This document shows positions 16,777 to 20,641 of a stretch of 64,000 nt of DNA, piece after piece (the stretch's first letter is position 1; each line of letters begins with the position of its first letter). The position numbers and the translations under genes were made by a program. The DNA comes from Escherichia phage SUT_E420. A model generated the notes under the pieces. It was not told the DNA's origin. It was given only the letters and a program-made list of their open reading frames with translations, and ran no database searches. The stretch is from sequence record OQ990039, one strand, 5' to 3'.

Positions 16777-17205
16777 ATGTTCAATAATGTATTCTCTAAA
16801 GAAGCTAACCCAATTTTGGTTAACTTTTGGCGTACTCTTCCAGCTAGCCTGTATAATGAGGCTATTAACTCTTTGAAAATATGGTGTGAGAATAACGAAA
16901 TCTACTTTGCTTTTAAAGATGATATTGATGAAGCCCCCTGTATTGGTTTAATTGTTCAGGTAGAGGAGGGTCTTGAAGAGATTGTCGGCTGGAAAGAGTT
17001 AGATGAAATGGGCTTAGTTTTTGCGTTAAACTATAAGCTGTTTATGCCTGCTAAGCATCGCCTCGTTGTTAACTATAAAACTAGTGAATCTCCTGGTTTT
17101 CAAGTTAATGAACGTTACGGTTGGTCTTACTCACCAGAAGAAGTGAATGATGGTATCCAAAAACTTCGCCGTTTCGGGTATATGATCCCAGGTTTAACTG
17201 CTTAA
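16777..17205 (+). CDS. Hypothetical protein, paralog A of a tandem pair
   Basis: 142 aa; shares PCIG...MGL(V/I)xALN...(I/V)PGL blocks with the adjacent downstream ORF. Confidence 0.5.
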   Translation: MFNNVFSKEANPILVNFWRTLPASLYNEAINSLKIWCENNEIYFAFKDDIDEAPCIGLIVQVEEGLEEIVGWKELDEMGLVFALNYKLFMPAKHRLVVNYKTSESPGFQVNERYGWSYSPEEVNDGIQKLRRFGYMIPGLTA

Positions 17206-17214
17206 GGAGGCAGA

Positions 17215-17604
17215 ATGGAACAAGTATATTGGCGTCAGATTGACCCTAGTTTGGTGAAACGTGCGGAGAAGCTGCTACAACGTTGGTTGGGGGTAAGACA
17301 AGCCTCCTTCACTTTTCCTGAGCAGCAAATAGATGATCCATGCATTGGCGTTTTCCTGTCTGGATACGCCAGGGAATGGGAACTGGATTGGAATGAGTTG
17401 TCTGCTATGGGTTTAATTGTTGCCCTAAATTTCTCTTTGTTCCATCCACGTGGTTTTGCCATATGTCGTGTGCCGGATGATGGTTGTTCGCCCCATCTTT
17501 TACAGGTGGAAAATGATATTTGGGAGTACACTCCAGATATTCTCAAAGAAGCTAAAGAACAATTAAACCGTGTTGGGATATATGTTCCGGGATTAAATGA
17601 CTAA
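17215..17604 (+). CDS. Hypothetical protein, paralog B of a tandem pair
   Basis: 129 aa; homologous to the upstream ORF over its conserved blocks; GGAGG SD. Confidence 0.5.
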   Translation: MEQVYWRQIDPSLVKRAEKLLQRWLGVRQASFTFPEQQIDDPCIGVFLSGYAREWELDWNELSAMGLIVALNFSLFHPRGFAICRVPDDGCSPHLLQVENDIWEYTPDILKEAKEQLNRVGIYVPGLND

Positions 17605-17630
17605 TGATTTTTATTAGCTGAACTCTGATT

Positions 17631-17656
17631 ACCGAGTCATTTTGGCTCGGTTTTAT
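17631..17656 (+). terminator. Intrinsic terminator candidate after the Sir2 operon
   Basis: 8-bp stem ACCGAGTC / GGCTCGGT followed by TTTT. Confidence 0.45.
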
Positions 17657-17698
17657 CCGTACTCAAGACCAATGATAGCACCATCCGGAAAATTTTAC

Positions 17699-17727
17699 TT
17701 GCAGGATGCTCAAAATCTTGATATAAT
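17699..17727 (+). promoter_or_regulatory. T5-type early promoter reading into the ORF-free region
   Basis: -35 TTGCAG (17699-17704), 17-nt spacer, -10 TATAAT (17722-17727). Confidence 0.5.
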
Positions 17728-18226
17728 ATTTATATTGAATTGAGAGATATTAGTAAAAATTGATTTTGCTAATTTTTCTTGTTTACAATCCGCGATACGG
17801 AACAGTTAGGCTGCCCAATTAAGGGTTGTTTTAACTGTTACGTGTTAGTTTTTAAACAAATAGTTAATAGAATACTTAGCGATCTGCGTCCCGTAGGAAC
17901 CCTGGTAAGGCCTCGAAGCAACCTAGATAGAGGTGGTTGTGAAGTGAGACGGGAGGAGTGAAAAACTCCGAGACGTGATTCTGTAAGTTATATTGCATCT
18001 AGTATGAGCTAGTACATGAAGCATTAGGTGAGCAAATCTGGCTTAGCGGCCATCCTCAAGGATTTGTGCGGTATAGCAAAGCAGCAGCGCAGCGTGAAAG
18101 TGGAAGTTGCCACCCCACTTCAGTATTTGCGATTAATTTGTTGAGAAATTGACAGTAACAGTTGTTCTATTCTTTCTGAATAGTCCTAAAGAAAACTTAT
18201 TTCATTTCCAACACAGGAGTATTGTT

Positions 18227-20641
18227 GTGTTCTCAATCCTACAAGGTCATGCAGGATTTCATCGCGATTTAGCCACAGGCAATTGGCGAGAAGTTAAAGC
18301 AGAAGACTATCTTTTTGCTAAAAGATTTTCCTCAAAGCATCCTGAAGGTAAACCAGCTTCAATGCCCTTCAAGTTTGATGTAATTGATGAAGTTGATCCT
18401 CAAACCCTAGTAGAAATGCTTCCTCTTATGAGACGTTTAACGTCTGACCCTCATATCGTTGCGGTACGAGGTCGATGTCTTACACCTAAAAATAATGTGC
18501 GACGTAAGAAGGGCAACTTTAATGTATCTAACCCAAGTCATATAATTGCAATGGACGTGGATGGTATTGTAGATACAGGTGGTTGCAACAAGTTTGATCT
18601 TGTTGGCATGGCTCGACATATTATTAGAATGTTAAATAGTATTAGTGAGGATATGTTTCCTCTTGATGCAGGGTTTATCGCTCATGCATCGTCTTCGGCT
18701 GGGCTNNNNNNNNNNNNNNNNNNNNNNNNNNNNNNNNNNNNNNNNNNNNNNNNNNNNNNNNNNNNNNNNNNNNNNNNNNNNNNNNNNNNNNNNNNNNNNN
18801 NNNNNATGTTAAATAGTATTAGTGAGGATATGTTTCCTCTTGATGCAGGGTTTATCGCTCATGCATCGTCTTCGGCTGGGCTAAAACCAGGTATCCGAAT
18901 GCACTTAATACTAGAATCTAATGTTAAAGTAACTCAGGGTCAAATCAAATTCTTATTTACATCTATCAACGAAAGTAGTAGACAAAAGTATGGCTTTGAT
19001 ATTGCCGACTTAGCTTATTACTCTTCCGTACAGCTCCACTATTTTGCAGATCCGTTATTTACCGATGGTATAGTAGATCCGTTTAAAGCGGAGGGTGCTT
19101 CACGTCTGGTATTTGTTAAGGGTTCTAAAGTAAATTTACCCAATAATCTGGTTGACTATGAAACAACTAGAGGTGAGTTTAAGGAGGAGTTTTACTCTTT
19201 ACTCGATCAAATTAAAGGTAAAAAAGCTGCCTCTGATAAAGTAGAGGAAACTATCAGCGAACTAGAAGAAGCTGAGGATGGAGTGTATCTACGTATCATA
19301 CCTAAACTCTATCACAGAGCCTTAGAGGATGGTGTTGATTTTGCATGGCTAGAAAAAGAAATCCGTCCAGCCTTATCAGAATATATTGCAACTAAAGATA
19401 ACAGTCGCAATATTCAAGATTACTTTAATAACGGTCGTAAACAGGCTCTGAAAGCATTTGTTAATAATTCTAAACGTGATATACCTGATGTTTTAAAGGG
19501 TATTCCACTTAAAAAGCTAGAAACTAATTCTCTAGAAACTGATAACTTCTTGAAATTAAATACTGTACCACCAGAAGGTTATATGACTTTTGTAAAAGCA
19601 AGTCTAGGTACAGGTAAAACTACAGCGGTTGTGCGTTGGTTAGATTCAGGAGTTATTAAAGGTAATTTCTTAGCAATTACCAATACTAGAGCACTGGTAT
19701 CTTCAAATGCCAAGAAATTTAGTGCAGGACAATATGATAAGTCTGTAGATATGCTTAATTTTAAGCGGGGTGCTATTGACCGTATGTCCACAACTATTCA
19801 CTCTTTGCATAAATTCAAGAGTTTTATTGGTCAAATTGATGCAATCTTTATCGATGAATGTGATGCAGTAATGAATGACCTATTATTCGCCCCGGTTGTT
19901 AAACAACGTCGCGAGTGTATTCAGGTTCTTCGGGATATTCTTGCAACTGCAAAAATCATTATATTATCTGATGGGGATATTAGTGCAGAAACAATTGAAG
20001 CATATGGTTCTTTGATTGAGTTTGATAAACCAGTAGCATTTTATAACCATCACCGTAAAATGCTATCAAAAGCTCATGCTTATGAGTTCCCGGATGAATC
20101 CAGTATTTGGGTTGCACTTCAGACTTCTCTAGAGATGGGTGAGAAATCTATCCTAGTATCTGACTGTGGGCCGGATGAACTGAATGAGAAGGGTATGGCA
20201 TTGCGTCGTAATACGGGTGCGTTAGTTAAGGAAATCCACTCAAANNNNNNNNNNNNNNNNNNNNNNNNNNNNNNNNNNNNNNNNNNNNNNNNNNNNNNNN
20301 NNNNNNNNNNNNNNNNNNNNNNNNNNNNNNNNNNNNNNNNNNNNGATATTAAGAAGTGTTCAAATGTCACTATCAAACCATTCATAGAAGCTCTGAAAGG
20401 TAAGAAGAAAGATTTCTTCCTTAAAACAGGTCAGAGTGCTAACCCAAAATATGCCAGAATGTATCTTGGTATGATGGGTATTGGTAAGGATATGAACACT
20501 GAAAATATTGTAGACTGGTACAGAACCTATTGTAAAATCGAGTGTATGCCAATCCCCTATAAGTTTATGACTGATGAGGAGAAACATATGCATGATGAAG
20601 CAATGGCAGAGCTAGGTGCTAGAAATGACAGTGAAGAATAA
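18227..20641 (+). CDS. Putative replication initiator / P-loop helicase-like ATPase, possible N-terminal primase-polymerase-like domain (interrupted by two assembly gaps)
   Basis: Start proposed at GTG 18227 with AGGAG SD. Walker A SLGTGKTT and Walker B IFIDECD. N-terminal IIAMDVDG and GIRMHLIL resemble AEP motifs (tentative). Contains gaps 18706-18805 and 20245-20344. Confidence 0.55.
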   Translation: MFSILQGHAGFHRDLATGNWREVKAEDYLFAKRFSSKHPEGKPASMPFKFDVIDEVDPQTLVEMLPLMRRLTSDPHIVAVRGRCLTPKNNVRRKKGNFNVSNPSHIIAMDVDGIVDTGGCNKFDLVGMARHIIRMLNSISEDMFPLDAGFIAHASSSAGXXXXXXXXXXXXXXXXXXXXXXXXXXXXXXXXXXMLNSISEDMFPLDAGFIAHASSSAGLKPGIRMHLILESNVKVTQGQIKFLFTSINESSRQKYGFDIADLAYYSSVQLHYFADPLFTDGIVDPFKAEGASRLVFVKGSKVNLPNNLVDYETTRGEFKEEFYSLLDQIKGKKAASDKVEETISELEEAEDGVYLRIIPKLYHRALEDGVDFAWLEKEIRPALSEYIATKDNSRNIQDYFNNGRKQALKAFVNNSKRDIPDVLKGIPLKKLETNSLETDNFLKLNTVPPEGYMTFVKASLGTGKTTAVVRWLDSGVIKGNFLAITNTRALVSSNAKKFSAGQYDKSVDMLNFKRGAIDRMSTTIHSLHKFKSFIGQIDAIFIDECDAVMNDLLFAPVVKQRRECIQVLRDILATAKIIILSDGDISAETIEAYGSLIEFDKPVAFYNHHRKMLSKAHAYEFPDESSIWVALQTSLEMGEKSILVSDCGPDELNEKGMALRRNTGALVKEIHSXXXXXXXXXXXXXXXXXXXXXXXXXXXXXXXXXXDIKKCSNVTIKPFIEALKGKKKDFFLKTGQSANPKYARMYLGMMGIGKDMNTENIVDWYRTYCKIECMPIPYKFMTDEEKHMHDEAMAELGARNDSEE
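18706..18805. other. Assembly gap (100 N) flanked by identical 77-bp copies
   Basis: The 77 bp before the N-run (18629-18705) are repeated exactly after it (18806-18882). Confidence 0.95.
20245..20344. other. Assembly gap (100 N) without flanking duplication
   Basis: No repeat of the flanking sequence across the gap; true gap content and length unknown. Confidence 0.95.

Follow-up and report, generated by a model that had tools for sequence, protein, structure and literature searches.

The window analysed here, 64,000 nucleotides of Escherichia phage SUT_E420 (record OQ990039), is a scaffold of a T5-like phage genome and contains fourteen gaps of 100 N each. It holds a non-coding stretch of 622 nt (17605-18226) between a 129-aa DUF7415 gene that ends at 17604 and the D2/OBP gene, whose GTG start at 18227 follows the annotation in relatives ("replication origin binding protein", D2 of T5); the terminator, the promoter, the leader elements and the D2/OBP gene described below all lie on the + strand. 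D2/OBP is a UL9-like superfamily 2 helicase and the presumed replication initiator. D2 amber mutants make no DNA, an initiator role is suspected but not shown, and the T5 origins have never been placed on the sequence (PMC3632103). We propose that the stretch is the template of an RNA of ∼490 nt, predicted to be transcribed toward D2/OBP as the 5′ leader of its mRNA, and we hold with high confidence that this leader is a functional structured RNA. Its predicted fold is kept in enterobacterial T5 relatives of at least six host genera and matches no catalogued family.

An earlier note on this DNA had singled out 17657-18226 as the longest stretch of the window without a credible open reading frame (ORF), lying after a terminator and carrying a T5-type promoter. 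The lack of ORFs holds in that 17605-18148 contains none of at least 70 aa on either strand and is the largest such gap in the window, but at a threshold of 100 aa two other gaps are slightly longer. The terminator and the promoter were both borne out. The former is an intrinsic terminator of the upstream operon of DUF7415 paralogue genes (17631-17656), in which the hairpin CCGAGUCAUUUUGGCUCGG (17631-17651; −13.2 kcal/mol, z −4.2) is followed by the U-tract UUUUAU; it is annotated in phage Lindwurm and near-invariant in our leader alignment, and a simple terminator scan did not list it for threshold reasons. The promoter (17686-17733) is of the T5 early sigma-70 type, with an A/T-rich upstream tract, a −35 element TTGCAG (17699-17704), a 17-nt spacer, a −10 element TATAAT (17722-17727) and the discriminator ATATT, which is the signature reported for all known T5 early promoters (PMC7472727). 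All of these elements are present within 17686-17736, the records of T5 and S114 mark a putative promoter at this site, and transcription is predicted to start near A17734. A generic sigma-70 scan missed this promoter because TTGCAG agrees with TTGACA at only three of six positions. It was the only part of the query to match Klebsiella, Proteus and Providencia T5-like phages, where the matches are other promoters. No terminator lies between the promoter and the OBP start.

Two variations on this arrangement were seen among relatives. The Epseptimavirus genomes S132 (743-1195 of locus L010) and KKP_3831 (316-768 of L011) carry an HNH homing-endonuclease gene between the terminator and the leader; the promoter region there is swapped for a different one, and the downstream RNA is intact. 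In Proteus phage PM135, a consensus TTGACA-18-TATAAT can be picked out by eye between the long non-coding region and the OBP start (∼2936-2970 of L072), and the RNA and OBP may be separate transcription units in this phage. The motif CCUUAGC occurs twice in the same locus (2586 and 2925).

Seven ORFs of 25-60 aa occur in the region, and a conserved small ORF was what the earlier note had named as the finding that could explain it otherwise. None was found: all seven contain stops or frameshifts in relatives, every one of them in the leaders that we call type B below and several even within the near-identical type A. Three of them, of 33, 60 and 38 aa, are listed as hypothetical proteins for Salmonella phage SCF and some other phages. 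In PP735124 (SCF), PV844355, PP407513 and other records, three or four such genes of 33-60 aa are placed inside the RNA; they look like annotation artefacts. These annotations are what speaks for a missed coding sequence; besides the interruptions, it is contradicted by the manner of conservation, which is compensatory pair by pair and not codon-wise. That the stretch is a functionless spacer is countered by invariant islands and by a length and geometry constant across genera, which exclude neutral drift. We consider a missed coding sequence or an idle spacer to be extremely improbable.

The region does not correspond to a catalogued RNA either. ARAGORN reports no tRNA or tmRNA gene in the whole window, in agreement with the earlier note, which could recognize no cloverleaf, and the Rfam, tRNA, tmRNA and group I intron scans that it had proposed gave no family match. 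Rfam 15 covered riboswitches, group I and II introns, GOLLD, ROOL, OLE, HEARO, 6S, tmRNA, RNase P and the rest. On 17400-18500 at E ≤ 10 it returned four chance-level matches of 13-17 bits, compared with gathering scores of 34-70, and on the equivalent Klebsiella, Providencia and Vibrio loci it returned none at E ≤ 1. The RNA is not described in the literature searched on the T5 origin, transcriptome, noncoding RNA and functional genomics, with a listing in the supplement of a phage structured-RNA screen (PMC10690425) being possible, and it carries no annotation in the GenBank records examined.

The leader stretch was found in 537 phage records, of which 272 are Salmonella and 129 Escherichia phages. 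A search with the OBP protein gave 269 and 129 records for the same hosts, so that essentially every such phage carries the leader. The DNA around it (631 bases) is 100% identical to that of Escherichia phage SUT_E1520 and at least 98% identical to that of many Tequintavirus genomes, and an ORF-free gap of 0.6-1.1 kb also precedes OBP in Klebsiella, Providencia, Proteus and Vibrio relatives. A metagenome scan with the H2 motif described below (ACRGAACAGTNNGGCTGC) gave 120 mostly chance matches, with a true T5-like leader in one of the 80 loci retrieved.

Alignment shows the leader to be a mosaic. The first ∼150 nt and the last ∼100 nt of the transcript are near-invariant, and the central 262 nt exist in two forms that are barely alignable yet have exactly the same length, the same helices and a common invariant island, GGCUUAGCGGCCA. 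Type A comprises the window, DaisyDussoix and HildyBeyeler; type B comprises T5, L6jm and all Epseptimavirus. Over the 226-nt domain, mean column identity among 25 distinct leaders is 74%, and columns invariant between the two types are sparse. The OBP genes that go with the two types are 78-89% identical over their first ∼1500 nt and 96-97% identical over the last ∼600 nt. In all of 28 genomes, the core type goes together with one type of OBP 5′ portion (the first ∼1.5 kb). The N-terminal two-thirds of the initiator and the RNA core thus behave as a single variable module.

Independent folds of type A and type B leaders give the same architecture: two 5′ hairpins (H1 and H2), a multi-helix domain of ∼330 nt closed by the helices P1 and P2, and then hairpin P7 and a start-codon hairpin. 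H1, the 5′-terminal hairpin (17742-17780; GAGAGAUAUUAGUAAAA / UUUUGCUAAUUUUUCUU; −12.7 kcal/mol, z −4.5), has 16 pairs, all of them 100% paired in the 25 leaders; Pectobacterium, Klebsiella, Providencia and Proteus phages have a hairpin of different sequence at this position. H2 (17795-17820) is the near-invariant motif AUACGGAACAGUUAGGCUGCCC, which forms the small hairpin GG-AA-CAGU-UAG-GCUG-CC. The motif occurs once in the 64-kb window and is invariant in Tequintavirus, Epseptimavirus and the Pectobacterium phages DU_PP_V and My1; in Klebsiella phages AG...CU replaces GG...CC, a compensatory change. Between H1 and H2, some phages of both core types carry an insertion of ∼97 nt with its own hairpin, GGAUUUACGG...CCGUAAAU (HildyBeyeler, ∼760-860 of L007; bastian, L008; L042; columns 350-445 of leader alignment A1), and phage oselot shows a tandem expansion of ATTTTGCTA at the same junction, which indicates that this junction of the RNA tolerates insertions.

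The long closing helix P1 pairs 17832-17876 with 18122-18164, as seen by comparative pairing and in the inverted repeats I1 and I8. It has 22 pairs common to types A and B, with compensatory changes, and ∼38 predicted pairs in type A; the duplex of this region outside P2 has z scores of −3.4 to −7.7 relative to shuffles in nine of ten lineages. Within it, P2 joins GCGAUCUGCGU (17879-17889) to GCGCAGCGU (18087-18095), again by comparative pairing. The P3 sub-domain (17890-17953) consists of a CCCGU/ACGGG closing stem with hairpins at 17901-17910 and 17913-17947; the closing stem becomes CCCAU/AUGGG in the leaders of L018 and L024, and its pairs are kept in DU_PP_V and My1. After the P4 hairpin comes the P5 sub-domain (17982-18083), composed of stem P5b (18032-18038/18061-18067), a 3′ internal loop and P5c, GGC-UUAGCG-GCC (18039-18052), which has an invariant loop; the sequence CUUAGCGG does not vary in any enterobacterial lineage. 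The P6 hairpin AAGUGG-AAGUUGCCACC-CCACUU (18098-18120) has GUGG/CCAC in the window versus GAGG/CCUC in Klebsiella phages, and its loop motif GUUGCCACC is common to Pectobacterium phages and partly to Klebsiella phages. P7 (CUAUUC-UUUCU-GAAUAG, 18167-18183), with six pairs that do not vary in the 25 leaders and with CUAUC/GAUAG in Klebsiella phages, is followed by the invariant UCCUAAAGAAA. Finally, the start-codon hairpin AACACAG / UUGUGUU (18210-18231) encloses the Shine-Dalgarno sequence AGGAG (18215-18219) and buries the GUG (18227-18229). Its pair at the first base of the start codon runs from C-G to U-G in Epseptimavirus and to U-A in Klebsiella phages, tracking the change from a GUG to an AUG start.

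The earlier note had pointed to a GC-rich segment with a GGAGT-GAAAAA-ACTCC hairpin flanked by direct GAGACG repeats (17946-17975). The GC-rich character is clear, since 17875-18100 has 49% G+C compared with 35-40% in neighbouring 2-kb windows. The hairpin exists as P4 (17955-17969; GGAGU at 17955-17959, ACUCC at 17965-17969; −7.5 kcal/mol), but its loop is GAAAA, of five and not six nucleotides. It varies in a compensatory manner to AGAGU/ACUCU in DaisyDussoix and L031 and reads GGGG/CCCU in Pectobacterium phages; P4 as such is absent from the type B core. Both GAGACG copies are present (17946-17951 and 17970-17975), yet a pair of 6-mers is at chance level and went unreported by a repeat search. 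Only the 3′ copy is kept in other lineages (GAGAAGUG), and the direct repeats were dropped as a functional element for lack of conservation across lineages. In phage lambda nutR, boxB is a stem of 5 bp that closes with U-A beneath a GAAAA pentaloop, and P4 of type A has this form. The pentaloop is confined to type A, however, and is not kept in type B, Pectobacterium or Klebsiella phages, so that its conservation is not that of a lambda N/nut element; boxA and an N-like protein were not searched for. The likeness is probably coincidental.

Three further candidate interactions were also dropped. A switch by alternative pairing of AACAGUU with AACUGUU (inverted repeats I3 versus I8) is absent from the Pectobacterium phages, a kissing pair between the P3b and P6 loops (GGUGG/CCACC) is not conserved across lineages, and an anti-Shine-Dalgarno mimic in the internal loop beside UUAGCG (CCUCCUUA) occurs in DU_PP_V only. 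As regards a riboswitch, no known aptamer was found with Rfam and no conserved mutually exclusive pairing was found; the weak start-codon hairpin is present.

The main support for the fold comes from covariation, and conservation of the fold across T5-like phages was a test that the earlier note had itself put forward. RNAalifold applied to a sequence-only MAFFT alignment of the 25 distinct leaders gives 104 pairs, of which 23 show compensatory changes and almost none are broken. Standard pairs fill 99.4% of the pair cells, as opposed to 35.4-48.7% in controls whose 3′ partners were slid along by 1-3 columns, and the 23 double-change pairs compare with 2-3 in the slid controls. The covariation score of 0.251 exceeds the 0.028-0.057 of the slid controls and was reached by none of 500 shuffles. 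P2 (GAUCUGCGU/GCGCAGC) changes independently within type A (CUACAC/GUGUAG) and within type B (CUGUGU/GCACAG), and at one position of the stem under the UUAGCG loop three kinds of pair occur among the 25 leaders; the covariation is therefore not all due to a single split between A and B. When ten type A leaders are combined with those of Pectobacterium phages DU_PP_V and My1, 156 pairs are predicted, 51 of them with compensatory changes, which resolves the type A core into P3, P4, P5a-c and P6.

The compensatory pairing extends across genera. A covariance model built on 17875-18100 (R1; 227 positions, 34 pairs) matches over its full length in DU_PP_V (32.3 bits, E 1.9e-7) and in two genomes of Klebsiella Sugarlandvirus (22.6-22.7 bits, E ∼1e-4), in each case exactly upstream of OBP. 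For Providencia phages it recovers only the UUAGCG hairpin (E ∼0.4-0.5), and with filters off it gives no significant full-length match in the Proteus, My1 and Vibrio loci. My1 was instead covered by sequence alignment, and the Providencia and Proteus phages by inspection anchored on the UUAGCG hairpin and the ...UAGCA(A/U)U flank. In a nine-sequence cross-genus alignment (A6), 96.7% of cells pair versus 34-47% when slid, and 22 of 34 pairs show double changes versus 3-8, counts that are flattered in that the alignment was fitted to model R1; plain MAFFT across genera misaligned the Klebsiella P2 arm. Both P2 and the stem under UUAGCG are 100% paired in this alignment, with double-side changes in 7 of 9 and 7 of 8 pairs, respectively. 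P2 exists in six compensating versions (CUGCGU/GCGCAG, CUGUGU/GCACAG, CUACAC/GUGUAG, CUAGAA/UUCUAG, CUAGUU/GACUAG and CUAACAG/CUGUUAG) spread over Tequintavirus, Epseptimavirus and the Pectobacterium, Klebsiella, Providencia and Proteus phages. The geometry is constant: 200-218 nt separate the P2 arms, and the distance of the UUAGCG loop from the predicted start is 298-351 nt.

The pairing also tells which strand carries the structure. Of the pair cells, 18.2% are G-U, and the mirrored structure on the opposite strand has only 81.4% standard pairs. The alifold energy is −71.5 forward versus −50.5 in reverse, and the mean minimum free energy is −134.8 versus −105.2 kcal/mol. From the G-U share and the energies, we assign the structure to the sense RNA (formally, to a + strand single-stranded nucleic acid) and not to duplex DNA. 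What would be expected of a structured RNA in general, namely compensatory pairs beyond the controls and on one strand, is thus observed. An alternative is that hairpins or cruciforms in single-stranded or supercoiled origin DNA are read by the UL9-like helicase. The herpes simplex virus oriS* is the proposed precedent for UL9-type recognition of structured origin DNA, and the family has been reported to recognize structured single-stranded origin DNA; compensatory changes would equally keep hairpins in the + strand as single-stranded DNA. A duplex cruciform is disfavoured by the 18% of G-U (G-T) pairs, which become A-C mismatches on the complement. Moreover, the fold begins with a 5′-terminal hairpin a few bases after the predicted start site, and helices spanning 200-330 nt are implausible for extruded DNA. 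Even with the finding that D2 binds structure-specific DNA substrates (PMC3632103), we regard a DNA-level structure as very unlikely.

The earlier note had offered three readings of the region: a structured noncoding RNA, a long regulatory 5′ untranslated region, or an origin-like region next to its initiator gene. The first two are jointly supported by the early promoter that leads to the OBP start without an intervening terminator and by the conserved fold with its compensatory changes and G-U pairs; the third found no positive support. Taken as a whole, the best explanation is a conserved structured leader RNA of the D2/OBP mRNA that acts at the RNA level in cis, a reading to which we give about an even chance. 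Cotranscription with D2 and the start-codon hairpin before a weak GUG start are what favour cis action. As to mechanism, the invariant loops of H2 and UUAGCG, which sit on fast-changing helices, look like binding sites and could be bound by a phage or host factor. P1 could serve as a double-strand-specific processing stem, like the RNase III stems that flank rRNAs or occur in T7 and lambda early leaders; with 22 conserved and ∼38 type A pairs it has the duplex length that RNase III needs, about two or more helical turns. Cleavage in P1 would cut the core out of the leader, and the OBP mRNA that remained would be short and would begin with P7. Processing, together with the start-codon hairpin and the weak GUG, would set the amount and timing of initiator protein. 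This particular mechanism we put forward tentatively, at somewhat below even chances.

Several points weigh against this reading or temper it. A good deal of the covariation among the 25 leaders is one A-versus-B split counted repeatedly, many of the leaders are close relatives whose cells are not independent, and the consensus structures were counted on the sequences from which they were derived, so the counts are inflated. Thermodynamic z scores of the leader are no better than those of neighbouring coding sequence and were left out of the evidence. As for individual lineages, Klebsiella phages have a weak P1 helix (z −1.1), P2 contains one mismatch in a Providencia relative, and P2 in Providencia and Proteus phages was assigned by inspection, without statistical control. 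The start-codon hairpin is itself weak (−5.8 kcal/mol, z −0.85), with no evident counterpart in Pectobacterium or Providencia phages. Start site, 3′ end and processing of the transcript are predicted from sequence, the suggestion of RNase III cleavage derives solely from the length of the P1 helix, the ligand or protein partner is putative, and it is by inference that the leader would regulate OBP. Finally, a domain of 330 nt far exceeds what simple translational control would require, which favours an additional or different function.

Known systems resemble the proposed cis-acting leader in part. In the RNase III stems of the T7 R1.1 type, the lambda N leader and 16S/23S rRNA, a long imperfect helix likewise flanks a structured segment in a polycistronic early transcript, and the translation signals of the downstream gene lie a short distance 3′ of the helix. 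The T7 and lambda sites are local hairpins, whereas P1 closes a conserved 290-nt domain that is itself under strong structural selection, and its cleavage is a prediction. Plasmid initiator leaders (IncI-alpha/IncB repZ type, R1 repA) also have a long folded leader, a sequestered start and an initiator whose level is expected to be limiting. The T5 leader is several times larger and belongs to a lytic phage, and none of an antisense promoter, a leader peptide or an activating pseudoknot was found in it. Structured leaders and processing stems are known kinds of element; a closed domain of ∼330 nt before a phage initiator gene is an unusual variant of them.

An alternative is that the P1-closed core is cut out, accumulates as a stable RNA of ∼300 nt and has a target other than its own mRNA; it might, for example, tie up a host protein or a defence sensor, or assist a phage enzyme as a cofactor. 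Long closing helices around a compact domain are how rRNAs and other stable RNAs are excised, and RNAs that offer binding sites typically hold invariant loops on helices that change fast. The core also diverges far faster than its neighbours, between near-identical leader flanks and adjacent OBP DNA of 78-89% identity, and the apparent second promoter of PM135, seen by eye, stands between RNA and OBP. Excision, however, is a prediction, with no terminator behind the core; no matching motif that could be a target was found elsewhere in the window, and there is no similarity to a known trans-acting RNA family. The fixed position directly before OBP in every lineage points to a link with that gene. 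GOLLD, ROOL, OLE, HEARO and raiA RNAs are comparable in exceeding 300 nt, in having many helices and invariant loops, in being phage-borne and in having been found by covariation without a known function. The T5 RNA differs from them in having no Rfam match and in being part of an mRNA leader whose place in the gene order is fixed, instead of standing alone close to tRNA genes. An excised, trans-acting RNA seems unlikely to us.

Alternatively, the transcript could mark an origin, hybridizing with the template or passing to D2 so as to prime or license the first DNA synthesis. In ColE1 (RNA II), and at T4 oriF and oriG and the T7 origins, which combine a promoter with an unwinding element, a promoter-driven transcript primes or licenses replication. 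The T5 leader shares with ColE1 RNA II, T4 oriF/oriG and the T7 primary origins a strong promoter, a transcript of ∼500 nt with a relevant fold, and a place in the replication module by the initiator, and at ∼490 nt it matches RNA II in size and complexity. It shows no sequence or structural homology to them, and is known here as a promoter and a predicted folded transcript only. Its location is suggestive: it adjoins the only homologue of a UL9-like origin-binding protein, in a phage whose D2 amber mutants make no DNA and whose origins are unmapped (PMC3632103), and it sits at ∼49% of full-length genomes, for instance at 59.2 kb of 120.6 kb in chee24. The first 50 nt after the strong early promoter are A/T-rich, and the leader is universally retained. 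The linkage of core type to 5′ OBP type in 28 genomes would fit as well, but it could be explained by adjacency alone, from which it is expected.

An origin in the usual form is not apparent at the leader. It has no iterons, tandem repeats or other repeated binding sites; within 17550-18300 tandem arrays are absent, and the direct repeats come to just two, of 11-14 nt and with two copies each. The conserved pairing is that of one strand, unlike a DNA palindrome. No GC-skew inflection occurs there, the skew being uniformly positive from ∼12 to ∼40 kb with switches that coincide with changes of gene orientation; for phages, skew is a weak criterion. An RNA-primed or R-loop origin, on the other hand, would be expected to look the way the leader does. 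Nothing specific to hybrid formation or RNase H processing was identified, and published electron microscopy, to the extent that it is cited in PMC3632103, describes several internal T5 origins rather than one. An origin or primer RNA is, like the excised RNA, a serious rival that we nevertheless judge to be unlikely. More doubtful still is that the leader represents a new class of large structured RNA acting directly in the initiation of T5-like replication, where it would specify the origin, provide the primer or assist the UL9-like helicase as an RNA cofactor, whether excised or retained on the template.

Some features of the surrounding genes are worth recording. The D2/OBP gene (18227-20641), whose Klebsiella orthologue gives the Pfam Herpes_ori_bp domain, is interrupted by two 100-N scaffold gaps, at 18706-18805 and 20245-20344, in addition to the twelve other runs in the window. 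The ∼77 nt before the first gap (18629-18705) are exactly repeated after it (18806-18882); this is a contig overlap that was left unmerged, and it makes the OBP reading frame artificially long. Upstream of the leader, the genes at 16777-17205 and 17215-17604 are paralogues with two DUF7415 domains each (E 1e-36 and 9e-32); one of them is labelled "tail tube protein" in some GenBank records, which is implausible.

The Vibrio T5-like leaders, which are few and divergent, have their own promoter, share no motif with the enterobacterial RNA and have no Rfam match. In Vibrio phage phi 3 (812-1916 of L045), the ORF-free stretch has 49% G+C versus 40% in a coding segment of its OBP gene. The Vibrio stretch may represent another large leader RNA, unrelated to the first.

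T5 is a founding model phage, and the RNA before D2 offers a concrete, mutable handle on its origin and on the control or recruitment of its initiator. The element could join RNA family libraries, and in many GenBank records spurious "hypothetical proteins" are placed inside it. Structured RNAs with domains of more than 300 nt and without a known role are rare, and several have proved to have unusual biochemistry. If the RNA does act in initiation, the long-unmapped T5 origin would be RNA-defined.

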